Of a DNA stretch of 18,164 nt, positions 1-18,164 are shown piece by piece. Each line of letters begins with the position of its first letter. Within the stretch, counting starts at the first letter, position 1. The DNA comes from a virus. Lineage: Duplodnaviria; Heunggongvirae; Uroviricota; Caudoviricetes. The position numbers were made by a program, and so were the translations under genes. The notes under the pieces were generated by a model, which worked only from the letters and a program-made list of their open reading frames with translations, made no database searches and was not told where the DNA came from. The stretch lies in the IMG/VR virus record IMGVR_UViG_3300014886_000120; one strand, 5' to 3'.

Positions 1-1101
1 CATGTGTCTGGCTAAGTATTCTATAAACTTTCTGTAGTAGCCAAACTCTGCAGACTTATCCCTTAGATTGACAGCTAGCTCCCGGTACCCTTCAAGGTAG
101 TCTCTACTTTCTAGCTTGATATCATCAAGCACTTTCCATAGCTTCTCATTTATTATCAGGCCGTCTAGTTCGTTAGCTAGATCCCTAAAGATATCTCTGG
201 GCTTCTTCCTATGCTCTACCAGAGGAGCACCAAATGCCATATACTTGCCTACCCTGTCCATTACCTTTTTCAGGAACAGAGCTGACCATACATCGTCCAT
301 GCCTCTAATGTCACCATCAGAATATCTTACCATACTGGCATCATGTACTCTCATTGGGAGATAGTAGTAAGCCGGGAGTATTTCAGGTTTAAATGAAATG
401 TTCATAGACGACACTGGTATGAAAGTGTTCCTGGGCACAAGTATCTTCTCATACTTCAGCTCTAAAGTCCTGACTTTGGGTATTCCCTTTAGTCCTCCCT
501 GGTTAAGTATAGTGACTGCATTAAGGTCTGGTATGTTAGTCCATAATCCCTGGTTAAACACTACCTTGTTCATTGCATTTCCTATCTCCATGCCTTCACC
601 TTCAAGCTCTGGGACAGCTGAGTAAGGTAAGCCTCGTTGATACACTCTGCCACAGCTGTTCTCTACCTCCATGAAGTCCAGAGGGTTTATCCATTTAGCC
701 AGCTGAACCTGGACATCATATATTCCATAAGAGAGCAAGTGTTTCCCTACAAAGTCCTCACTGGACAGGGGATACGTATCATCGTCAAACGTCATGATAT
801 AGTCTGAGTTTCTGGCTACAAGGAAGGCAAAGCTGAGCTCAGCATGGTGTCTCTCAGGAATAACGTCCATATACTTTTCCAGTCCATTCTTTATGAACCA
901 GTCCTTCCTCTCTGATGGTCCATAGAACTCTATCTTGTTACATATCCTTCTGTTGTACCTCCTTACAGCTTTGTCTCCTTCATCTACCACTATTATCCTG
1001 ATATTGTCAAGTTCATGGTTGTATTTGACAAGGTTGTCTATATACTTCCTAAGGTTGTCAAGCTTGTTGATTGCAGCTGTAACCAGACTTATCATACCCA
1101 T
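1..1101 (-). CDS. GT75 / reversibly glycosylated polypeptide (RGP, UDP-arabinopyranose mutase-like) protein, 3' end outside window
   Basis: Manual translation from ATG at 1101 (TGATG overlap with the kinase stop, SD GAGGTGA) stays open for 367 codons to position 1. RGP motifs in order: IMTFDDDTY, YQRGLPYS, NQGLWTNIPDLNA, PVSSMNISF, GMDDVWSA, GAPLVEHRK. Confidence 0.85.
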   Translation of the reverse strand, partial: MGMISLVTAAINKLDNLRKYIDNLVKYNHELDNIRIIVVDEGDKAVRRYNRRICNKIEFYGPSERKDWFIKNGLEKYMDVIPERHHAELSFAFLVARNSDYIMTFDDDTYPLSSEDFVGKHLLSYGIYDVQVQLAKWINPLDFMEVENSCGRVYQRGLPYSAVPELEGEGMEIGNAMNKVVFNQGLWTNIPDLNAVTILNQGGLKGIPKVRTLELKYEKILVPRNTFIPVSSMNISFKPEILPAYYYLPMRVHDASMVRYSDGDIRGMDDVWSALFLKKVMDRVGKYMAFGAPLVEHRKKPRDIFRDLANELDGLIINEKLWKVLDDIKLESRDYLEGYRELAVNLRDKSAEFGYYRKFIEYLARHM

Positions 1102-2075
1102 CACCTCTTTTCATAAATGATACTTGTACCGTCAGAATCAAACCTGACTTCCACTTCCTTAAGGTTAGAGAGTACTTCTCTCACTCTGTCTTGATCTTTC
1201 CTTTCTACATACAAGAGTAGGAATCCCCCTCCTCCAGCTCCAGATATCTTGCCTCCTAGAGCTCCAGCCTTCATGGCCTTATGGTAGTACGAGTCTATTA
1301 TGGGGTTACTTATTCCCTTAGCCAGCTGTTTCTTGTATGTCCACCCCTGGTGAAGCATGTTACCTAGCTCACTTATGTCATTGTCCCTCAGCATGTCTCT
1401 TAGTTTGACAGCTTGATCTTTCATCTTGTCCAGTATCTCCATCCTGTTTGGAATGTTCCTAGCTTGATAAGGAAGGATAGTGTCTGAAGGTCTGGTAATA
1501 TTGGTATAGAACAGCATCAAGCTATCCTCGAGTTCGTTCAATGTGTTAGAGGATAGCTTTATAGGCTCAACTATTACACTCTCATCCTTGTTGAACTGTA
1601 TATAGTTCAGACCTCCAAAGCTAGCTGCATACTGGTCTTGCTTGCCACATGATTTCTTTAGTATGTCTATCTCCAGTCTACAAGCTTCCCTAGCCAGGAA
1701 CTCCTTGTTCTGGATGATACCTATGAACTTGTACAGTGCATTCAGAAGTCCTACTGACAAGCTGCCAGAAGAACCTAGTCCTGTACCTTTACCTGGTATG
1801 TCAGCCAGAGTGAGTATCTCAAGGTATTTCGGTACATCCACCATCCTGATAGCTTCCCTAATGAGGCCATGCTTTATCTCTTCTAGCTTGTCTGTTATCT
1901 CTGTCTCTGAATAGCTTATCCTGTAGCTGTCTTCAAACCTCTTCTTAGCTATCACATAAATGTAATACTGGATGGCAGTACTAACTACAGCTCCAAAGCC
2001 TGTCCTGTAGTATCCTGGTAGGTCAGTTCCTCCTCCTACAAAGCTTATCCTGACTGGAGTTCTGGATATTATCAT
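1101..2075 (-). CDS. hddA: GHMP-family sugar kinase, D-glycero-D-manno-heptose-7-phosphate 1-kinase (HddA)-like
   Basis: ISRTPVRISFVGGGTDL, PGKGTGLGSSGS (GHMP ATP loop), GKQDQYAASFGG, KISGAGGGGF. Start moved to ATG 2075 (ATGA overlap with the upstream stop). Confidence 0.85.
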   Translation of the reverse strand: MIISRTPVRISFVGGGTDLPGYYRTGFGAVVSTAIQYYIYVIAKKRFEDSYRISYSETEITDKLEEIKHGLIREAIRMVDVPKYLEILTLADIPGKGTGLGSSGSLSVGLLNALYKFIGIIQNKEFLAREACRLEIDILKKSCGKQDQYAASFGGLNYIQFNKDESVIVEPIKLSSNTLNELEDSLMLFYTNITRPSDTILPYQARNIPNRMEILDKMKDQAVKLRDMLRDNDISELGNMLHQGWTYKKQLAKGISNPIIDSYYHKAMKAGALGGKISGAGGGGFLLLYVERKDQDRVREVLSNLKEVEVRFDSDGTSIIYEKR

Positions 2076-2260
2076 CCTTGTCTCTCCCCTTTGCCAAACC
2101 ATCTCTCCCAGTCCTCATCTGTTACCTCTGGGAATAGATGCTGCCATTCCTCCTTGGTTATATCCCTTGAGACCCTTCCACATGTATAGCACAGTACTTT
2201 ACCGTCAAACAAAGAGTAGGACTTCCTAGTGCACCCACATTCGGGACACTTTATTGTCAA
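2072..2260 (-). CDS. Small Zn-ribbon protein (62 aa)
   Basis: CPECG...CYTCG; TTG start in a TTGA overlap preceded by GGAGGT; its stop overlaps the next start (ATGA). Confidence 0.75.
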   Translation of the reverse strand: MTIKCPECGCTRKSYSLFDGKVLCYTCGRVSRDITKEEWQHLFPEVTDEDWERWFGKGERQG

Positions 2261-2970
2261 GCCCTTGACCTCCTAGCTCTGAACCAGGGAACTACCCTTA
2301 CTTCAGGGAATGGCCATAGTCTGTCAACTGGACTGTGGAAGAACAGTCCGTACTCACCAAATAGCTCTCCATGATCAGAGGTTATCACTATGTCCTTGTC
2401 TGGACAAGCTTCCACTATTTTCTGGCAGTACTTCAGGGCTACAAGCAGGTTTGATATGTATGCCTTCTTGAGCTCCTCAACTGTTATTTGACCCTCAAAG
2501 AAGCCTTTCCCTATGTTCCAGTCGAAGGGCACCCTAGCTCTTCTGGGATGCATCTGTATCCCTTTAATGCTTGGGTTACCTATGTAGGGAGCATGTGGCT
2601 GTAGGAAGTGAGCTAGTATCCTCATCCCCGGATATTTCTCTACTGCCTTTATGGTCTCCTCTGCCATGACAGCTGGATCAGTAGTGGTAAGCTCTTCGTT
2701 CCACCCATAGTCCCACACATCAAGTATCACTGGGAAAATCTTGGCCCACTGGTTGTCACTGCGTAGTGAAGGGTGGCCAGACAGGTACACTATGTCTTTC
2801 TGGGGATAGTAGAAGTTCATCCTCCACCATATCTCTGTCACTGACCCTTTACTCCACCTCTTGTCCAGTCTGCCAGGTATCCTGTTTACATGCCTGAACA
2901 CATCATACCTGCATGCATCCAGTAGGAGTAGGATGTCCCACTTTGATGAGGGTATGTCCTGTACATGCAT
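2257..2970 (-). CDS. Alkaline-phosphatase/sulfatase superfamily protein
   Basis: LLLLDACRYD, HFLQPHAPY and ITSDHGE...GLFFH metal-binding motifs. No CxPxR formylglycine motif; SKGSVT is the candidate Ser/Thr nucleophile segment. Confidence 0.75.
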   Translation of the reverse strand: MHVQDIPSSKWDILLLLDACRYDVFRHVNRIPGRLDKRWSKGSVTEIWWRMNFYYPQKDIVYLSGHPSLRSDNQWAKIFPVILDVWDYGWNEELTTTDPAVMAEETIKAVEKYPGMRILAHFLQPHAPYIGNPSIKGIQMHPRRARVPFDWNIGKGFFEGQITVEELKKAYISNLLVALKYCQKIVEACPDKDIVITSDHGELFGEYGLFFHSPVDRLWPFPEVRVVPWFRARRSRA

Positions 2971-2973
2971 GAC

Positions 2974-3870
2974 TTATTCATCCCTCCAGTACTTCTCTTT
3001 AACCTTCCTTAGTCCTTCTTCCAGAGTAGAGAATCTGTACCCAAACGTTTCCTGGAACCAATTGTTGCTTAGCCACAAGTGTCTCGGTCTTACTCCGTCA
3101 AACATAAAGTCATCCAGACTGGCCTTTTCTATGAGGTCTTTGTTGAATCCAAAGACTTCAGCTATCATGCTGGCATATTCATACCTGCTTACACATGAGC
3201 TACCTACAGTATGGAAGGTTCCCTGTATATCACTCTCAGCCAATATAAGAATAGCTTGAGCTAGGTCATCCACAAAAGTGGGACAGCTGAACTGGTCTAT
3301 GAACGGTTTCACTGTCTTACCCTTCTTCAAGCTGTCTAGTACCCATCCAAGGAACCTGCTTTTTTCTGGGTTGCCATATATCAGTGAGGGTCTCACTATA
3401 TTGTATCTTATACCCAGACTTCTTACTATGTGTTCACCTTCCACCTTGGTTCTGGCATAGACATTCAGGGGGTTAACCAAGTCTTCTTCAGTATAAGGCT
3501 CTAGCTTGGTTCCATCAAACACATAGTCTGTAGAGGTGTAGATTAGCTTAGCCCCTATTCTCTTACATTCATATCCAACATACAGCATGCTTACTGCCTG
3601 TACAACACTGGCCTCTACTGGGTGCCTCTCACAATAGTCTACCCCAGGCACATTGATCACATTGACTACAACGTCTGGGCATGTTTCCCTTATCAGCTTG
3701 ACTGTACCAAGGACATCAGCAATGTCAAGCTTAGTATATCCCTCGGATATAGAACTGTTTACTACTGGTCTGCTTCTGTATGTTCCAATAACCTCATGTC
3801 CTTTCTCTATGGCCAGCTCAGCTAGTCTGCTGCCTGTAAGTCCACTGGCTCCAAGTATGAGTATCCTCAT
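2974..3870 (-). CDS. rmlD: dTDP-4-dehydrorhamnose reductase-like (NDP-4-keto-sugar reductase)
   Basis: GASGLTG Rossmann motif, YTSTDYVFDG, PLNVYARTK, FSCPTFVDDLA, G.FH, RP...LSN. Confidence 0.88.
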   Translation of the reverse strand: MRILILGASGLTGSRLAELAIEKGHEVIGTYRSRPVVNSSISEGYTKLDIADVLGTVKLIRETCPDVVVNVINVPGVDYCERHPVEASVVQAVSMLYVGYECKRIGAKLIYTSTDYVFDGTKLEPYTEEDLVNPLNVYARTKVEGEHIVRSLGIRYNIVRPSLIYGNPEKSRFLGWVLDSLKKGKTVKPFIDQFSCPTFVDDLAQAILILAESDIQGTFHTVGSSCVSRYEYASMIAEVFGFNKDLIEKASLDDFMFDGVRPRHLWLSNNWFQETFGYRFSTLEEGLRKVKEKYWRDE

Positions 3871-4397
3871 TTCTCTTTCCTCTTCTTGAGCTCTTCTACT
3901 ATCTTTCTATACGGCTTGTAGAAGCTCACAGTCTTTGGATGCTCAAAGAACTCTATGAACCAGCTGTCTGTCAAAGATACCAGCCAGTGGGGTATCCCTG
4001 GCTCAAACACTACAAAGTCTCCCTCGTTAAGGTAGTGTACCTTCTCTCCAGGTATGGTTACTTTGCCTCCAGAATAGTCTATTGTAACCTCAGGGCTATA
4101 CCTCTCTATGATGGCTAGCCTGCCCTGGAGGACCAGAGTGTATTGTCTGTGGCTATGGTAGTCTCCTCCCCTTACAGCTCCAGCCTTGGTGTACATTATC
4201 ATTAGCTCCCTTAACGGTTCATCATTGAACCTGAAGCTATACACCTTACCTCTACTGTCCTCCTGTTCAAACACACATCTGGTAAAGTCTCTGGGTAGGC
4301 TGCTCCATATTCTGGCTAGCTCCTCAACAGCTAGCTCCTCCCTTGGTATCAGTAGGGTATCCTTCAATTTCTTAACCATCTCTCTAAAGTTTACCAT
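3867..4397 (-). CDS. RmlC-like cupin (NDP-sugar epimerase/ketoisomerase-like)
   Basis: EDSRG, TKAGAVRGGDYH and PGIPHWL cupin motifs; lies between SDR and RmlD-like genes. Confidence 0.7.
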   Translation of the reverse strand: MVNFREMVKKLKDTLLIPREELAVEELARIWSSLPRDFTRCVFEQEDSRGKVYSFRFNDEPLRELMIMYTKAGAVRGGDYHSHRQYTLVLQGRLAIIERYSPEVTIDYSGGKVTIPGEKVHYLNEGDFVVFEPGIPHWLVSLTDSWFIEFFEHPKTVSFYKPYRKIVEELKKRKEK

Positions 4398-4400
4398 ATC

Positions 4401-5345
4401 CTATTCCTCCTTTACTTCTTTTATTCCATATGATGGACCGTCAATTATGGACTTTCCAGTCCTGTACTCGTAACACCTCTTTATGCCCTCATCCACATCC
4501 ACAAAGCTTTCAGGATCTAGACCAAGCATGTTCTTAGCTTTGGTCATATCTGAGATATATGAGAAGCACCAAGCTTGTTCTTCAACATACTTTACTCTGA
4601 ACTCCTTGATAGCTTGAGCCTTCTTTATCACCTCATTTATGGAGTATGGTCTTTCTGTACCTATAAGGAATATCTCATAGCTCCTATCCATCCCCTCAAA
4701 ATAATGGATACATTCATCAACTACTCTGCATATGTCGTCTACGTAAAGGAACTCCCTCACATGGTTGCCCTGGCAATACACCTTGAAGGTTAGGTTATTG
4801 TTCACCATACAGTCCACTATCTGCTGGATAATGTTCTTCTCTTCCTGGTCTGGACCATAGATTATGGTTGGTCTAATGACTATTCCCTGGACACCATATA
4901 GCTCGGAATATAGCTTGACTAGAGCTTCCCCAGTGGCCTTGCTGAGTCCATACGGATTGTCTGGATTTATTGGATCAAGCTCATTGAGTGGTAGGGCTAC
5001 TCTGGGTCCAACTACGTTCCATGCACTAAAGAACACCATCTTCCTCACTCCATGGCTTCTCATAGCTTCAAGGATGTTCAGGGTTCCAGTTATATTGGTG
5101 AATAAATACTGCCATGGAAGCTTATAGCTAGGCCTGTTCCCAGCTCTGGCAGCCAAATGGATTACAAGGTCGTCCTGTCCAAGATTGTTGCTGGTAAAGA
5201 AGGCTTCCACATCCTTCATGTTGGTGACATCAAGCTTCAGTCCTTCACCCTTAATGTCTGTAGAGAGAACATCATAGTGTCTCTGGAGATAGCTAACTAT
5301 GTGTCTCCCCACAAACCCTCTTCCTCCAGTAACTAGCACTCTCAT
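4401..5345 (-). CDS. NAD-dependent NDP-sugar epimerase/dehydratase (extended SDR)
   Basis: VTGGRGFVG, HLAARAG, TNITGTLNILE, YGLSK, RPTIIYGP, REFLYVDD. Confidence 0.9.
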   Translation of the reverse strand: MRVLVTGGRGFVGRHIVSYLQRHYDVLSTDIKGEGLKLDVTNMKDVEAFFTSNNLGQDDLVIHLAARAGNRPSYKLPWQYLFTNITGTLNILEAMRSHGVRKMVFFSAWNVVGPRVALPLNELDPINPDNPYGLSKATGEALVKLYSELYGVQGIVIRPTIIYGPDQEEKNIIQQIVDCMVNNNLTFKVYCQGNHVREFLYVDDICRVVDECIHYFEGMDRSYEIFLIGTERPYSINEVIKKAQAIKEFRVKYVEEQAWCFSYISDMTKAKNMLGLDPESFVDVDEGIKRCYEYRTGKSIIDGPSYGIKEVKEE

Positions 5346-6316
5346 AAATGTCCCCTCCCACTGTTTATTTCAAGGAGTATCCTCTCAAACTCATTTATGG
5401 TATTCTCGTATGTACGTTCACTGGCCTTCCTGAGTGCAGCTCTCCTTAGCTGCTCATAGTCTGGTGAACTGATAACCTCAAGCATCTTTTCAGCTAGAAT
5501 ATCTACGTCTCTTTCAATAATGTATCCATCTACTCCATTCTCTATGAAGTCATCCGTACCTTTGGATGTAGATATGACTGGAGTACCACATGCCATGGCC
5601 TCTATCACTGGGAGTGGGGAACTCTCAAGGCTGCTTGAACATACATAGATCATTCCTGAAGAGTAGAGCTCGGCTAGCTCGTCATCTGTGAGTCTAGGAT
5701 GGTAAATCACCCTCTTCTCCTTGTATGGAAGGTTACCAAATGTGTGTAGCTCAAGATCAGGCCTCTCTTCCAGAGCTTTGTGGAATGCCGGTATCAGCAT
5801 GTCCAGGAAGCCTTTGAAGTCCTGGTATGCACTCAGCCCTATTATCCTGTTCCTGTGTTTCTGGACCTTCCTTGGATAGAATATTTTGGGGTCTACTCCT
5901 GGAATAATCACATACGGGTTTCTCTTCTTATGCTTGCTCCTAATCTCATTAGCTAGCCATGTAGAGGTACATATCAGGTACAGGGGAAAATCATATGTCC
6001 TTTTGGCTCTCATGTCACCAAATATGGTCTCGTAATGCTGGCATAGATATACCTTGTACTTGGATTTGCACCTCATTGCAGTATAAGCTGTGGGCCACCA
6101 TGTAGCTATGGGTATCTCATTCCTCTCTACACTCTTCACTTGTTCAGGTATAGTCTTCATCTCTTGTATCTCCACTGGAGTGTCCAGCCATTTTATGTAA
6201 CGGTTGGTTATTATCCTCACTTCATGTCCCTTCTTGTACAATCCAGTAGCTAGGGTGATGATGGTCCTGTTGCCTCCGGTAGGACCTGTTTGATCAGTAA
6301 GGAACACTACCCTCAT
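5342..6316 (-). CDS. Glycosyltransferase family 4 (GT-B)
   Basis: TGGNRTI at the N-terminus, DFKG, ESSPLPVIEAMACGTPVIS. Confidence 0.9.
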   Translation of the reverse strand: MRVVFLTDQTGPTGGNRTIITLATGLYKKGHEVRIITNRYIKWLDTPVEIQEMKTIPEQVKSVERNEIPIATWWPTAYTAMRCKSKYKVYLCQHYETIFGDMRAKRTYDFPLYLICTSTWLANEIRSKHKKRNPYVIIPGVDPKIFYPRKVQKHRNRIIGLSAYQDFKGFLDMLIPAFHKALEERPDLELHTFGNLPYKEKRVIYHPRLTDDELAELYSSGMIYVCSSSLESSPLPVIEAMACGTPVISTSKGTDDFIENGVDGYIIERDVDILAEKMLEVISSPDYEQLRRAALRKASERTYENTINEFERILLEINSGRGHL

Positions 6317-7155
6317 ATCATTCCCCTCACTGTAGCAGCTAGCACCATCTTGTCATTCCACCCAAACAGCTCAGGCTTCTCCTTGACCTTCTCCTTAAGC
6401 CAGTCTATCCATTTAGACCTGAATATCCTAAGGTTTCTAATCTGGGCTTGGTTCCACATCCTCTGATCCTGGGCAAAGTGTGTAGCAGTCTCATAGTGGT
6501 AGAGAGCTACCTTGCCATCATAGTAAATTCTGTATCCGTTGTCTAGCAGCTCCATGCACTTGTCAGTGTCCCCAAATGATCCGACCTTGTATACTGAGTC
6601 CATCTTACCAAAGAGCTCTCTCTTAGCTACTACTAAGGCAAATGTTATACACCCTATCTCTTCAAGTGTACTGTACTTCTCTCTTGGTTCAAACCTTCCC
6701 CTATGATAGAATGGCCATGTGAATCCATCAAATGCATTTGGAGCTAGATAGCTACCAGCTGACTGGATTGTGTCGTTTGGGTACAGTAGCTTAGGCCCTA
6801 CCAGGGCTGCCTTACTGTCTCTCTCAAGCACCCTTACAAGCTTTGTTAGCCATCTTATCTTGGGAACTATAATATCATTGTTCAACAGACACACATAGTC
6901 TTCCTTACAATACTCTAAAGCTGTGTTGACTCCTTCAGTAAAGCCACTGTCAGGCATCTTGTTCCTATGGACTATGACATTCTTGTACCTTGAGGTTAGC
7001 TCTTTTATGAACTGTTCAGTTCCCTCTTCTGTAGAGGCATTATCATAGAATATTAGATTGAACGGATACTTGGTGTTCCTGTATAGTGTCTGGACACATG
7101 GTCTGGTGAACTTGAGGTTGTTCCAGTTTATGAGGATAATATCTACCTTCTTCAT
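6313..7155 (-). CDS. Glycosyltransferase family 2 (GT-A)
   Basis: IILINWNN, FYDNAS, GFTEGVN, LLNNDI, GFGDTD-like acceptor motif (SFGDTDKC), LYHYE. Confidence 0.9.
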   Translation of the reverse strand: MKKVDIILINWNNLKFTRPCVQTLYRNTKYPFNLIFYDNASTEEGTEQFIKELTSRYKNVIVHRNKMPDSGFTEGVNTALEYCKEDYVCLLNNDIIVPKIRWLTKLVRVLERDSKAALVGPKLLYPNDTIQSAGSYLAPNAFDGFTWPFYHRGRFEPREKYSTLEEIGCITFALVVAKRELFGKMDSVYKVGSFGDTDKCMELLDNGYRIYYDGKVALYHYETATHFAQDQRMWNQAQIRNLRIFRSKWIDWLKEKVKEKPELFGWNDKMVLAATVRGMI

Positions 7156-8411
7156 CTCAAGGCCTCCCTTATCTTAGCCTCCCATAGCTTGTCCTTCTCT
7201 TCAGAGATTCCAGCTATCTGTCTGCCTGGCAGATTAGACTGCTCCTCAATTATCTTGTCCAGTAGGGGTACCCACTTGTCCCTCACTAGATCATCCCAGT
7301 TGAACTGGATAGCAAACTGTCTTGATAGCCTGGCATATTTCTTCCTTTCCTTGTCTTTGAAGTAAGCCCTCTCCATACACTTGTATATTGACTCTGGATC
7401 TATGACAGCTGTCACTGCATTGATTGGAGTGTCAATGAACGTCTTAACATCAGCTAGCCACCCATGCCCATATATCAGTTCAGGCATAGAGCTGAACATA
7501 GCTCCTATCACAGGAACTCCACAAGCTTGAGCTTCAATTATTGGCAGTCCAAACCCTTCCCTACGACTAGCTGAGCACAGCACATCAAAGCAGTTATAAA
7601 GTAGACACATTTCACTGTCCTTTATGCCTGTCTGGAAAAGCAATGGATCCTGGGTTATAACTACATCCTGTAGTCCAAACTTCTTTATGAACAGTTCCAA
7701 CTGTAATCCCCTACCGTCAGATGGGTTAGAGAACAAGAAATACTTCACATACTCCCTCTTAACATCTGGGTTGTTGTCAAAGAACATCTGCAAAGCTCTG
7801 AACTCCTCCACAAAGCTCTTCCTGCTCTCCTTGTCTGAGTTGGCAGCTACCTTACCGAATATGAATATGTCTTCTGGCAATCCCATAGCTTTCCTAGCTT
7901 GTTCCTTAGGTATTGGATAGTATGTAGTTACGTCTACTCCATGTGGGATATACTCAAATTCTATACCATATTTAGCCCATTCCTTCTGCTGGAACTTTGA
8001 TGGACTCACAAGATAGTCATAGTTCCTCATCATTTCCTGTATCTCTTCTGGGTAGTCCACATGATCTAACGGTCCATAGGAAGCTGAACATGGAAGGTCT
8101 CTGGAGAACCATTGGAATGCCCATGGATCAGTGTGTAACCATGCACACTTTATTTTCAAAGCTTTGTAGTAATACTTACAGCTTGTCTCTCCAAACGTAC
8201 CAAACTTAGAGGGCAATACTGGAATGTCGTTTATGAGTAGTACTCCTCCAGGCTCTACACCATAATAGGCTGATACTGTAAAGTTGTACCCGAACTGTTT
8301 AAACCTGGTTAGCAAGTTTCTGGTAACATTTCCATATCCAGATCTGATGTGTGGAGCTACACTGTGCCAGAGAAATCTAAACTGCTCTCTCTCCTTCATG
8401 CTAACCAACAA
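7152..8411 (-). CDS. Glycosyltransferase family 4 (GT-B)
   Basis: SVAPHIRSGYG, IPHGVD, RKSF, SRREGFGLPIIEAQACGVPVI. Start is TTG 8411 (after AGGTGA) or ATG 8399. Confidence 0.9.
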   Translation of the reverse strand: MLVSMKEREQFRFLWHSVAPHIRSGYGNVTRNLLTRFKQFGYNFTVSAYYGVEPGGVLLINDIPVLPSKFGTFGETSCKYYYKALKIKCAWLHTDPWAFQWFSRDLPCSASYGPLDHVDYPEEIQEMMRNYDYLVSPSKFQQKEWAKYGIEFEYIPHGVDVTTYYPIPKEQARKAMGLPEDIFIFGKVAANSDKESRKSFVEEFRALQMFFDNNPDVKREYVKYFLFSNPSDGRGLQLELFIKKFGLQDVVITQDPLLFQTGIKDSEMCLLYNCFDVLCSASRREGFGLPIIEAQACGVPVIGAMFSSMPELIYGHGWLADVKTFIDTPINAVTAVIDPESIYKCMERAYFKDKERKKYARLSRQFAIQFNWDDLVRDKWVPLLDKIIEEQSNLPGRQIAGISEEKDKLWEAKIREALR

Positions 8412-8463: not shown

Positions 8464-8718
8464 CTAGGATATCAGCTTGCTTAGCTCTCTTACCGGATAT
8501 CTCTGCCTCCTTATCTTCTTTAGTAGCTCCATATCATAGTTCTTCTTTATGTAACGTTCTCTGGCTACATGATAGGCTACATCTATTGAGGAATAGTACC
8601 TAAGCTCTTCTTCAGTAAGCAGCTCTTTGCATATCATTATCTCCCTACGTCTCCTGTCCGATAAGCCCTCAATATAGTCCTGATCTTTAAGCTTGTCAAA
8701 CAAGCTTCTAAACTTCAT
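8464..8718 (-). CDS. Hypothetical protein (84 aa, charged)
   Basis: ATG start overlapping the deaminase stop, co-oriented, fills the gap; no recognisable motif. Confidence 0.65.
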   Translation of the reverse strand: MKFRSLFDKLKDQDYIEGLSDRRRREIMICKELLTEEELRYYSSIDVAYHVARERYIKKNYDMELLKKIRRQRYPVRELSKLIS

Positions 8719-9121
8719 TCTTATACCACCTGTTTCTGGGGAAGGGCATCGGATATAGCTCTTTCAGTGTAGCTTCAAACCTTATGTTGCCTTTCTGGTC
8801 TACTACTGTAATAAGCAAGTCTGGACTGGTAAACTCCCATAGGTACTGTCTACATGATGCACATGCCGGATAGATGTTTGTTTGTTTCTCATTGAATGAA
8901 TAGACTATGACTATACCTAAGAAGTCTGATGGATCTACATCAGCATCCAGAGCTTTAATGAGAGCTACTTCTTCAGCATGAAAGCCCTTGTGTATCTTGT
9001 TCTCAATGTTAAACCCAGTAAAGAGCCTATCCTTAGTATAAAGACAAGCCCCTACTCTGGATCTGAATGTGATGGCCCTCTCCATGGCTTTTATAGCTTC
9101 CCTTATTGCAGCTTTCTTCAA
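8708..9121 (-). CDS. cdd: Cytidine/deoxycytidine deaminase family protein
   Basis: RVGACL, GFNIEN, HAEE and PACASCRQ Zn motifs. Start moved to TTG 9121 (TTGA overlap with the NDT-like stop), giving about 137 aa. Confidence 0.85.
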   Translation of the reverse strand: MKKAAIREAIKAMERAITFRSRVGACLYTKDRLFTGFNIENKIHKGFHAEEVALIKALDADVDPSDFLGIVIVYSFNEKQTNIYPACASCRQYLWEFTSPDLLITVVDQKGNIRFEATLKELYPMPFPRNRWYKNEV

Positions 9122-9579
9122 AGCAGTTCCCTCTTGAGCTTCAATATGCCTCTTTCCAGTCCCTTCAGTGTCTTGTATATCCTTCCAAAATACAATAGCC
9201 ATGGATGAGCTTCCATTACTGAGTATATTAGTGAAGGCTGGTATATCAGGACTGGTTTCTTGAGTACATGTGAGGTATAGAATATCTCCATTGCACACCC
9301 TATTGAAGGATACGGCACAATAGCTACGGTGCCATCACATTGCTGGATAGCTATCATGTCCGTCTCTACTACTTTCCTATAGTACTTTCTTAGAAACCTT
9401 GAGTATTCAGATGGAGAGCTAGCTTTTGAGTTGTACTCGTTGATCCATTTGGACTCCCATCCGTCATAGAAGGGATTGTGCATTACCACATCAAGCTTCT
9501 TTTCTATCCCTATCTCCCATTCCCTTACCTTTATACGTTCAGGGAAGGGATGGGAAAGGTAGAGCTTAAGCCTCCTCAA
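9118..9579 (-). CDS. Nucleoside 2-deoxyribosyltransferase / dNMP N-glycosidase (NDT/DNPH1/MilB-like)
   Basis: LYLSHPF, HNPF, DMIAIQQCDGTVA, SIGCAMEIFY, LKKPV; TTG start after GGGGTGA. Confidence 0.75.
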   Translation of the reverse strand: MRRLKLYLSHPFPERIKVREWEIGIEKKLDVVMHNPFYDGWESKWINEYNSKASSPSEYSRFLRKYYRKVVETDMIAIQQCDGTVAIVPYPSIGCAMEIFYTSHVLKKPVLIYQPSLIYSVMEAHPWLLYFGRIYKTLKGLERGILKLKRELL

Positions 9580-16601: not shown

Positions 16602-18164
16602 TCAGTATGTGACTATTTCTACCCTTCCTTCCTTCTCTATGTACTCCCATTTACAGTAGAGCATGTCTCCTTCATCACTACCTGCAAACAGAGCTCCATG
16701 ATATCGTAGGTTTCCTATTCCATCCTTGCTTACTACTGGGGAACCACTGTCTCCTCCAGCACATTTGACCCTACACAGTACTACATCCTCGTAATAGGCT
16801 AGACCTCTACTTCCCTGGACATAACCGTTCCAGCTGGGATCTTCTATAGGTCCACTGGTAACCCCAGTAGTTCTCCCACTCTTGTAGACTTCTATACCTC
16901 GTTTATGTTCTCCCTTACCTACTATTCTTCCCTCTATTCCAAGAATGGAGTATGAGATTTCATCTGGATCTAGAGGTATACCAAAGCAAATATCAGCATG
17001 GTTAACAGCCTGATAAGTCCTGAAGTGTGTAGCTGCAAAAAGCAGCTTGTAAAGCTTGAACAGTATCCTCTTGTATAAGGAAGAGTATGAAGTAAACTTG
17101 GTTGGTACATTGTAGACATACTTGGCAATGGCATCACTCTCTTTACCTCCATCGTACGGGCTGGGTTGTATCCATAGCTCTCCCTTCTTAGCTTTATTTT
17201 CCCTACTTCCACAGTTTCCTGCCCATACTCCACATCCTTTTTCTCGTATAAATAAAGTATGATTCATGGGCAAAGTCACATCATACACAAAGCCTGAATA
17301 AGGATACTCTGTTATTGAACTTACCAGTGGGTCTATTGTCTTTAGGAATCTAACTCTGTACAGCACACTCTCTTTTCCCTTTGAGAAGTTGGTTATCCTA
17401 GATTCTCGTTTAATCAAAGTGGGGATTCCAAGCTTTAATGCTACCTCACAAACATCATTTGCTAAGCGTCTGGATGAAGTATTAAATCTACCATAGCTAT
17501 CACCATCTCCGTTCCTTAGAGTGTCGAGCAATATCTTGAGCTTAGAAGGTGGAAGCTCTTTGATTGTTGTAGGAATAAACTTCTCTTTAGAATGTACACC
17601 ATAAAGCCTGATATCTTTCAAAAGCTGATGGAAGGATGGATTATTAGATACAATTGCTGATTTACATCTCCATGTTCTTGCTTCCATGCTTTTCATACAC
17701 TTGTAAATTCTCTCATAGTATCTATTTTCTCTTTGTCTAATGCTGACTATTTTTTGACCTATGGAATTTTCACATGCTGAACCCTCTGATAGATACCAAC
17801 CTAGGAGCTCAATGAGCTCTTCACTAAACATATCATTATCTACACCTTTCCATTTGGCAATATTCTTGAACCTTACAGTAGTTGTTTTCCCTTCTGCTAA
17901 TCTCTCTTCAATTTCTTCAATCTTACCTAATTTAAAGTCACCAGCTTTCCGGCTATGGAACGGAGCTTTTGCAAAATAGACTGTGTTCCCTGGTGTCATT
18001 GAAACCTCAAACACCTTAGATTTGACTAATTTCATTGGTCCTCTATAGTAGATCTTATGGAAACGAATAGGCTGCAGATACTCTAAGCTTCCATCAGGAG
18101 CCAACGAGGCAAACCTTTCAGTACCATTTATTTCGTCCCATCTTTTAAAGCCATCTTTAGTTAG
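16602..18164 (-). CDS. Intein-containing trypsin-like (clan PA) serine protease, 5' end outside window
   Basis: Frame is open to the window edge (LTKDGFKRWDEI...). C-extein 16602-17213 has QPSPYDGG, NHAD (Asp), KSGRTTGVT, and GGDSGSP (Ser codon 16746-16748) followed by ALFAGS. Confidence 0.85.
   Translation of the reverse strand, partial: LTKDGFKRWDEINGTERFASLAPDGSLEYLQPIRFHKIYYRGPMKLVKSKVFEVSMTPGNTVYFAKAPFHSRKAGDFKLGKIEEIEERLAEGKTTTVRFKNIAKWKGVDNDMFSEELIELLGWYLSEGSACENSIGQKIVSIRQRENRYYERIYKCMKSMEARTWRCKSAIVSNNPSFHQLLKDIRLYGVHSKEKFIPTTIKELPPSKLKILLDTLRNGDGDSYGRFNTSSRRLANDVCEVALKLGIPTLIKRESRITNFSKGKESVLYRVRFLKTIDPLVSSITEYPYSGFVYDVTLPMNHTLFIREKGCGVWAGNCGSRENKAKKGELWIQPSPYDGGKESDAIAKYVYNVPTKFTSYSSLYKRILFKLYKLLFAATHFRTYQAVNHADICFGIPLDPDEISYSILGIEGRIVGKGEHKRGIEVYKSGRTTGVTSGPIEDPSWNGYVQGSRGLAYYEDVVLCRVKCAGGDSGSPVVSKDGIGNLRYHGALFAGSDEGDMLYCKWEYIEKEGRVEIVTY
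17214..18164 (-). mobile_element. Intein with LAGLIDADG homing endonuclease (N-terminal few residues outside window)
   Basis: LTKDGF follows block A; YYRGPM...MTPGN block-B region; LLGWYLSEGS and LLDTLRNGDG LAGLIDADG motifs; block F YSGFVYDVTLPMNHTLF; C-terminal WAGN followed by Cys+1. Confidence 0.92.

Follow-up and report, generated by a model that had tools for sequence, protein, structure and literature searches.

The DNA analyzed here (hereafter the window) is a stretch of 18,164 nucleotides from a virus of the Caudoviricetes, corresponding to G000:C1:77043-95206 (minus strand) of the 128,201-bp IMG/VR virus record IMGVR_UViG_3300014886_000120, which is estimated to be ~70% complete. At its edge lies a gene of the GT75/RGP family, to which the plant uridine diphosphate (UDP)-arabinopyranose mutases (UAMs) belong, and the gene stands in an operon of sugar-pathway and glycosyltransferase genes (Table 1). 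The minus-strand translation of positions 1-1104 is a stop-free frame of 368 residues that runs up to the window edge; in the parent record the whole open reading frame (ORF) spans 379 codons, its end lying 36 nt outside the window. As an earlier note on this DNA had recognized, the gene was absent from the accompanying ORF list, which is explained by its being cut by the window edge; it appears only if open-ended frames are allowed. The database copy of the protein begins at ATG 1095, 6-8 nt downstream of an AGGTGA ribosome-binding-like site, and the start region, GTGATGGGTATG, overlaps the stop of the upstream HddA-like kinase gene.

Family membership and fold

The window gene almost certainly belongs to GT75, an identity that the earlier note had proposed to check with an RGP hidden Markov model (HMM). 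When this search was run, Pfam RGP (PF03214; curated gathering cut-off, 23.8 bits) scored 63.5 bits (E 2.5e-17) on the window part of the protein and 72.1 bits on the whole ORF, and it was the sole Pfam family above its cut-off, accompanied by a weak GT2 match over the N-terminus. The lack of a GT75 hit, which that note had named as a refutation, was thus not observed. PHROGs and NCBIfam were also searched and returned no family for the protein. Among solved structures, the best match was MtdL (E 3e-22, 82 bits, residues 79-349), an enzyme of the A201A pathway of Marinactinospora thermotolerans (PDB 7XPR, 7XPS, 7XPT, 7XPU, and 7YUA) whose entries are deposited as 'Transglycosylse' and whose identity was taken from the Foldseek titles and the literature (PMC9937993). 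Rice UAM2 (8CID) came second with E 1.6e-5 and 27 bits. Thus, the description of the gene in the earlier note as plant UDP-arabinopyranose mutase-like holds at the family level, but the gene itself is an archaeal-type prokaryotic GT75, its product scoring nearer to the prokaryotic branch (82 bits for MtdL) than to rice UAM2 (27 bits). A word-indexed protein search yielded five relatives only, at 36-40% identity, and an exhaustive profile search was needed, which gave 1,918 representative relatives at E <=0.001, with 377 below 1e-30.

We built an AlphaFold2 model of the protein on 94 relatives, and its confidence was high, with a mean predicted local distance difference test score (pLDDT) of 94.4 and a predicted template modeling score (pTM) of 0.93. 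The three-region fold of the family was present in the model, namely an N-terminal Rossmann-like GT-A half, a family-specific core, and a C-terminal helical region. A Foldseek comparison with six MtdL entries gave full-length matches with template modeling (TM) scores of 0.83-0.87, a root-mean-square deviation (rmsd) of 2.6-2.7 A, and E 4.5e-30; rice UAM2 reached TM 0.65-0.70 with an rmsd of ~8 A, and ordinary GT-A enzymes TM ~0.4. Among the reviewed AlphaFold models, plant UDP-arabinopyranose mutases filled the first twelve places (E 1e-18 to 4e-23), with STELLO1/2 next. Membership in STELLO/DUF288 was rejected, since that likeness is structural only (TM 0.72 by query, 17% identity) and Pfam gives RGP and no STELLO family. 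The window gene is therefore a new member of a known flavin-free enzyme family and not a new kind of enzyme, and mutase activity is predicted for it.

Catalytic residues and the predicted mutase reaction

The functions of individual residues in this family have been worked out with MtdL, in which D111 and H287 are the Mn2+ ligands, Q229, R257, R289, and H292 bind the diphosphate, and D87, D109, R159, D195, S228, Q229, R257, and D260 bind the sugar (PMC9937993). The MtdL mutants D87N/S, D109N, R159K, D195N, Q229A, R257K, and D260N have no mutase activity, R257K having lost substrate binding, and S228A retains ~21% of the activity; Arg159 is the counterpart of the autoglycosylated Arg of plant UAMs (PMC9937993). 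We mapped the residues of the window protein onto MtdL by HMMER alignment and expressed conservation as column counts over the 94 relatives. A script check placed DDD at 778-786 (residues 107-109) and QRGLPYS at 619-639 with its Arg codon, CGA, at 634-636 (residue 157), the DDD and the Arg codon standing exactly where the earlier note had read them, and further RGP motifs, VVDEGD, HAE, DLN, SMN, IRGMDD, and HRKKPR, were all located in order. The Arg and Gly of QRGLPYS were both invariant (94 of 94 relatives), and Arg157 aligned with MtdL Arg159, bearing out the manual alignment in which this Arg had been called conserved.

MtdL and Hyg20 are bacterial GT75 enzymes that act as Mn2+-dependent pyranose-furanose mutases of guanosine diphosphate (GDP)-l-galactose and GDP-l-fucose. 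The window protein shares with MtdL the three-part architecture, DDD, the nucleophile Arg, the equivalents of Asp195 and Asp260, and the Mn-binding His. In contrast, the identity between the two is ~23%, Asp87, Arg89, Arg90, and Gln229 of MtdL are replaced with His, Glu, Leu, and Met, respectively, and the presumed equivalent of Arg257 is shifted by one residue. The base-selecting residues also differ from those of MtdL (Thr13 to Ala and Ser86 to His), and therefore the nucleotide is probably not predictable. While MtdL acts in an antibiotic pathway, the window gene is set in a viral glycan operon. Plant class-1 UAM/RGP proteins (OsUAM1 and AtRGP1-3) have in common with the window protein PF03214, DDD, the RG-x-P-[FY] Arg site, and a Lys at the Arg289 position, but they are more distant than MtdL, the sole solved plant member, rice UAM2, being probably an inactive class-2 protein, and their third motif is DYD where the window protein has DLN. 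Foldseek matches to the plant models had E 1e-21 to 4e-23, and the plant enzymes serve another pathway in another kind of organism. Flavin-dependent mutases, namely UGM/Glf and Campylobacter jejuni HS41.17 together with HS10.16 and HS41.15, which are so annotated, catalyze the same net reaction at the same end-of-pathway place (PMC12369002, PMC10680097), although they have an unrelated fold and use reduced flavin adenine dinucleotide (FADH2) as a cofactor.

From the conserved residues and the gene context, we predict that the window protein is probably a divalent-metal-dependent, flavin-independent nucleoside diphosphate (NDP)-sugar pyranose-furanose mutase that feeds the glycosyltransferases of its operon. 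If the window protein works as MtdL does, Mn2+ and the diphosphate would be bound by DDD and His298, and attack of Arg157 on the sugar C1 would generate a transient arginine-sugar adduct. Asp271, aided by Asp193, would then shuttle protons while the ring opens at O5 and recloses on O4, and return of the NDP would complete the formation of the NDP-furanose. The furanose donor would be supplied to the three glycosyltransferases of the same translationally coupled operon, with a virion or host-surface glycan as the candidate acceptor.

Several features of the sequence and the literature speak against this prediction. MtdL Asp87, whose replacement in D87N and D87S abolishes activity, is a His in the window protein, where active plant enzymes have Ser, and MtdL Gln229 is Met234. 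The presumed equivalent of Arg257, which in MtdL binds the beta-phosphate and the sugar, is displaced one residue toward the N-terminus, giving IRGMDD in place of [DG]-R-[FY]-[DG]-D: the Arg stands four residues ahead of the base Asp, whereas R257 of MtdL stands three. A motif count over 192 relatives found the canonical Arg-Asp spacing in 169 and the shift in the window protein only. Moreover, the loop ahead of the shifted Arg has 6-10 extra residues and is modeled with low confidence (pLDDT 56, residues 251-260). MAFFT, applied to the large alignment, instead puts R260 in the conserved Arg column and leaves eight residues as an insert; either R267, the Arg of IRGMDD, or R260 may therefore be the one that reaches the beta-phosphate. 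Finally, we found no assayed GT75 enzyme of the archaeal clade or of a virus in the literature. As to the first two replacements, the positions of D87 and Q229 differ in active plant enzymes too, and they mark substrate class and not family membership; the Met at the Gln229 position presumably matches the GMN motif of plants.

The same peculiarities could also point to a GT75 member that is no working mutase, namely an RGP/primer that glycosylates only its own Arg157, a non-catalytic class-2-like partner, or an ordinary GT-A transferase that hands the sugar to another acceptor, a possibility that we consider real but unlikely. No other relative departs from the R-x-[DG]-D motif in this way, the window protein has other residues at two positions essential in MtdL (Asp87 and Gln229), its overall fold is GT-A with the weak GT2 match at the N-terminus, and inactive family members do occur in plants (PMC9937993, PMC6861824). 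However, inactive plant class-2 proteins have DDN for DDD (PMC6861824), and AtRGP5 has lost the His and the Arg (PMC9937993), whereas the window protein keeps DDD, the Mn-binding His, and an Arg near the base Asp. All active characterized family members are mutases, and the operon already contains three dedicated transferases, two points that likewise speak against this reading.

Table 1. Coordinates and residue correspondences of the GT75 gene and of the neighboring operon genes in the window
Feature	Position	Strand	Observation
GT75/RGP-family gene	1..1104	-	368 of 379 codons inside; last 11 codons and stop past position 1
Candidate GT75 starts	GTG 1104, ATG 1101, ATG 1095	-	
VVDEGD	973..990	-	End of strand beta-2 in the N-terminal Rossmann-like half; equals MtdL base-binding D40-x-N42 and the first DGD of plants (PMC9937993, PMC6861824)
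HAE clade signature	838..846	-	His87 for MtdL sugar-binding Asp87, Glu89 for Arg89
His87 for MtdL D87			His in 20/94, the archaeal-type clade
Glu89/Leu90 for MtdL R89/R90			Glu in 20/94
DDD, residues 107-109	778..786	-	DxD metal/nucleotide-sugar motif, equals MtdL D109-D111; 94/94, 93/94, 93/94
QRGLPYS	619..639	-	Arg157 (634-636) equals MtdL Arg159 and OsUAM1 Arg158, nucleophile/autoglycosylation site
DLN	520..528	-	The family's third 'DxD', with Asp193 in the place of essential MtdL Asp195, 94/94; Asn replaces Asp at the third position (PMC6861824)
SMN	400..408	-	Equals MtdL S228-Q229-N230; S233 kept (column Ser 48, Thr 40)
Met234 for MtdL Q229	within SMN		Met in 26/94
IRGMDD	292..309	-	Asp271 equals MtdL Asp260, proposed general base, 94/94
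HRKKPR	196..213	-	His298 equals Mn-binding MtdL His287 (column 82 His, 12 Gln)
Lys300/Arg303 for diphosphate-binding MtdL Arg289/His292			Conservative; Lys and Arg common alternatives among relatives
HddA-like GHMP sugar kinase	1101..2102	-	PDB 3K85, E 3.9e-47; stop overlaps GT75 start
237-residue protein	2257..2970	-	No Pfam, NCBIfam, or PHROG match; viral locus L006 has a homologue close to its GT75 gene
RmlD-like NDP-4-keto-sugar reductase	2974..3870	-	TIGR01214, 210 bits
Cupin, possible sugar epimerase/isomerase	3867..4397	-	No RmlC-type match
GalE-like short-chain dehydrogenase/reductase, 314 residues	4401..5345	-	SAWNVVG ... YGLSK; without the acid dyad of 4,6-dehydratases
Three glycosyltransferases	5342..8411	-	GT4 5342-6316, GT2 6313-7155, GT4 7152-8411; presumed users of sugar donors

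Operon context and candidate substrates

In transcription order, the window carries genes for GT4, GT2, and GT4 transferases, a GalE-like short-chain dehydrogenase/reductase (SDR), a cupin, an RmlD-like reductase, the 237-residue protein, a zinc-ribbon ORF, the HddA-like kinase, and GT75. Past the window, these are followed by genes for a B12-binding radical S-adenosylmethionine (radical-SAM) protein, a GmhA-like isomerase, a CysD/3'-phosphoadenosine 5'-phosphosulfate (PAPS)-reductase-like protein, a nucleotidyltransferase of cytidylyltransferase fold, and a GmhB-like phosphatase. Most gene junctions of this sugar operon overlap. The three glycosyltransferases are natural users of the GT75 product, and the operon context fits a donor-supply role. 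No flavin-type mutase (PF03275) was found in the GT75 protein or anywhere in the 128-kb record, and the GT75 protein is therefore the sole candidate for the ring-contraction step. The same record contains no PF00483 nucleotidyltransferase, and its SDRs are the GalE-like and RmlD-like ones only.

The 314-residue SDR was considered as a 4,6-dehydratase, but this reading was rejected, as the acid dyad is absent and UDP-glucose 4-epimerases are the closest solved structures; family searches did not support the cupin as RmlC. The AlkP-family assignment suggested earlier for the 237-residue protein found no backing in Pfam, NCBIfam, or PHROGs. Together with the CysD-like gene, this protein might be a sign that the glycan is sulfated or phospho-decorated. 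In three viral loci, a radical-SAM gene adjoins GT75 (L002:52-1452 (+), L005:9118-10314, and L006:9110-10099 and 4397-5587), the neighboring type being B12-binding in the window virus and L005 and SPASM-type in L006. This arrangement may reflect C-methylation or another radical modification of the furanose or of a precursor of it. At L002:1449-3870 (+), GmhA-like, CysD/PAPS-reductase-like (NF003587, 241 bits), nucleotidyltransferase, and GmhB-like genes stand after GT75. Just upstream of the sugar operon, at 8708-9579 (-) of the window, deoxycytidine monophosphate (dCMP)-deaminase-like and weak nucleoside 2-deoxyribosyltransferase-like ORFs overlap in different frames, and at 16602-18164 (-) a LAGLIDADG-type insert lies inside a protease-like ORF.

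Two substrate candidates stand out: a galacto- or arabino-configured NDP-sugar derived from the GalE-like SDR, or a modified heptose made via GmhA, HddA, and GmhB. The known GT75 substrates are sugars of l-Ara, d-Gal, l-Fuc, and l-Gal (PMC9937993). In 83 related loci, comprising 80 cellular (79 archaeal) and 3 viral ones, a GalE-like SDR was present within 8 kb in 25, often with nucleoside triphosphate (NTP) transferase or GT2 genes, and the GT75 gene of the nearest relative is preceded, at a distance of 6 nt, by an SDR gene of the epimerase/dehydratase superfamily. By standard stereochemistry, l-Ara, d-Gal, l-Fuc, and l-Gal are all galacto-type at C4, which points to a galacto-type sugar here.

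The GmhA, HddA-like kinase, and GmhB of the virus, together with the SDR, cupin, and reductase, mirror the heptofuranose routes of C. jejuni step for step. In that bacterium, GmhA, HddA, GmhB, a nucleotidyltransferase, an oxidoreductase, an epimerase, a reductase, and a mutase act in this order to give 6-deoxy-heptofuranoses (PMC10680097), the mutase being a flavin enzyme (PMC12369002). Independently, the GT75-like gene of the cyanophage S-T4 stands in a heptose-type gene set (see below). We entertain, as a tentative and rather unlikely idea, that the window GT75 acts on an NDP-heptose, which would make it the first of its kind; a virus of archaea would then encode a route that parallels the one of C. 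jejuni but does without flavin. GmhA, the HddA-like kinase, and GmhB would build d-glycero-d-manno-heptose-1-phosphate, which the nucleotidyltransferase, GalE-like SDR, cupin, and RmlD-like reductase would activate and re-configure. Ring contraction by the archaeal-clade GT75, which carries a His at the Asp87 position, would then yield a heptofuranose for installation by the viral glycosyltransferases, and the adjacent B12 radical-SAM protein would perhaps C-methylate it. Other results run counter to this route: neither a 4,6-dehydratase nor an RmlC-type epimerase was found in the 128-kb record, and homologues of HddA, GmhA, and GmhB were absent from all 83 related loci, which rules out a clade-wide heptose link. 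The idea draws on viral gene islands, where glycan genes cluster whatever the pathway, and the nucleotidyltransferase is as near to glycerol-3-phosphate/ethanolamine-phosphate cytidylyltransferases as to heptose-1-phosphate adenylyltransferase, or nearer to the former.

A working mutase could also provide the furanose donor for decoration of viral DNA bases instead of a protein or surface glycan, since the operon adjoins dCMP-deaminase-like, deoxyribosyltransferase-like, and anaerobic ribonucleotide reductase and activase genes; yet the GT4/GT2 transferase types are typical of glycan assembly, and neither a ThyA-type hydroxymethylase nor ThyX was found in the 128-kb record, a weak argument given its ~70% completeness, so that we regard this destination as very improbable. 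That the ORF lies outside GT75 and resembles it by chance or as a generic GT-A protein, as the identity of only ~20-24% to characterized members could suggest, has practically no chance of being right, being refuted by a Pfam score three times the curated cut-off, the MtdL sequence match, and a full-length fold match that includes the core and C-terminal helices (TM 0.85 vs ~0.4 for other GT-A enzymes), in addition to invariant catalytic columns and 1,918 representative relatives at E <=0.001.

Archaeal and viral relatives

A motif scan for the clade, covering one genome per prokaryotic species, found 132 relatives, and the best 80 of these, 32-39% identical to the window protein over the full length, consisted of 79 archaeal proteins and one from an Anaerolineales bin. 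The archaeal ones among these best 80 came from Desulfurococcales, other Thermoproteota, Bathyarchaeia, Methanomethylicia/Methanosuratincola, the Asgard genus Borrarchaeum, and many Halobacteria. A quick maximum-likelihood tree built from 192 proteins placed the window protein inside a 91-row clade that holds every archaeal row (Shimodaira-Hasegawa-like approximate likelihood ratio test (SH-aLRT) support, 95), its nearest rows being a metagenomic protein, a Thermoproteota bin, and Borrarchaeum. Of the phylogeny with archaeal and plant members suggested in the earlier note, this tree covers only the contrast between the archaeal and the MtdL-like clades. The H-[ASN]-E-[TLN]-S-F signature of the archaeal clade is common to the window protein, which differs in its long terminal branch (0.73), its unique Arg shift, and its longer loop; its highest identity to any protein is 42%. 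The nearest cellular relatives are archaeal, which fits a putative archaeal host; comparison of the capsid and portal proteins with 50,697 deposited phages gave no match.

The control genome of Haloferax volcanii also contains a PF03214 match, and CAZy listed 43 archaeal GT75 entries in 2019 (PMC6861824); we looked for literature on archaeal or Haloferax GT75 and found none. Archaeal GT75 genes adjoin GalE-like SDRs, NTP transferases, and GT2 or PMT_2/DUF7846 membrane transferase genes, and never heptose genes, in contrast to the window gene. Among the loci of Halobacteria (L047-L086; e.g., L053:13189-15354), 27 have a large PMT_2 and DUF7846 membrane protein 1-4 kb after GT75. In 25 haloarchaeal loci, a solute-binding protein directly follows the GT75 gene, forming a conserved, uncharacterized neighborhood.

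The earlier note had stated that no characterized viral member of the family was known. We likewise found none, but viral GT75 genes are already present in public phage genomes and virome catalogues, and a soil-virome paper includes GT75 among bulk-annotated viral auxiliary genes (PMC11032446). The GT75 protein of the 595-kb uncultured phage LR756511 scored 146 bits on PF03214; this RGP gene (L088:7180-10947), which has no annotation in the record, has on its flanks a pair of sulfotransferase genes, a methyltransferase gene, and a gene whose product bears discoidin-type sugar-binding domains. Divergent GT75 genes, annotated as hypothetical or membrane proteins, are also present in the Synechococcus phages S-T4, Sf-CH5, and Sf-CH8. 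For the GT75-like gene of S-T4, hhalign gave a probability of 100% and E 2.5e-40; its product has Gln for the Mn-binding His and is without part of the C-terminal helices. In this cultured cyanophage, GT75 stands among PfkB-kinase, cytidylyltransferase-like, and annotated phosphoheptose-isomerase genes, with fucosyltransferase-like genes adjoining. The S-T4 protein, AXQ70509.1 (L087:3746-7022; MH412654.1, ~76.7-79.9 kb), is recorded as a 'putative membrane protein' and looks mis-annotated. LR756511, S-T4, Sf-CH5, and Sf-CH8 are bacterial viruses whose GT75 belongs to the MtdL-like or plant-like branch (22-28% identity), unlike that of the window. IMG/VR contains at least three more viral GT75 loci, and in L005 the order GT4-GT2-GT4-GT75-B12 radical-SAM is the same as in the window virus. 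Viral GT75 genes are thus not new as sequences, and what sets the present one apart is its unusual active-site detail and its interesting operon.

Sugars in the furanose form are rare, and surface antigens are often defined by them. To our knowledge, only two enzyme types make nucleotide-activated furanose donors, and we know of assays of the flavin-free GT75 type only from plants and two actinomycete antibiotic pathways. A large virus here carries a long, self-contained sugar-donor pathway. If the window protein is active as predicted, the assayed range of GT75 would reach archaea and viruses, and the protein would offer a first handle on the widespread archaeal GT75 genes and perhaps on furanoses in archaeal surface glycans. 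It would possibly also be a robust biocatalyst for NDP-furanoses, with a different sugar pocket.

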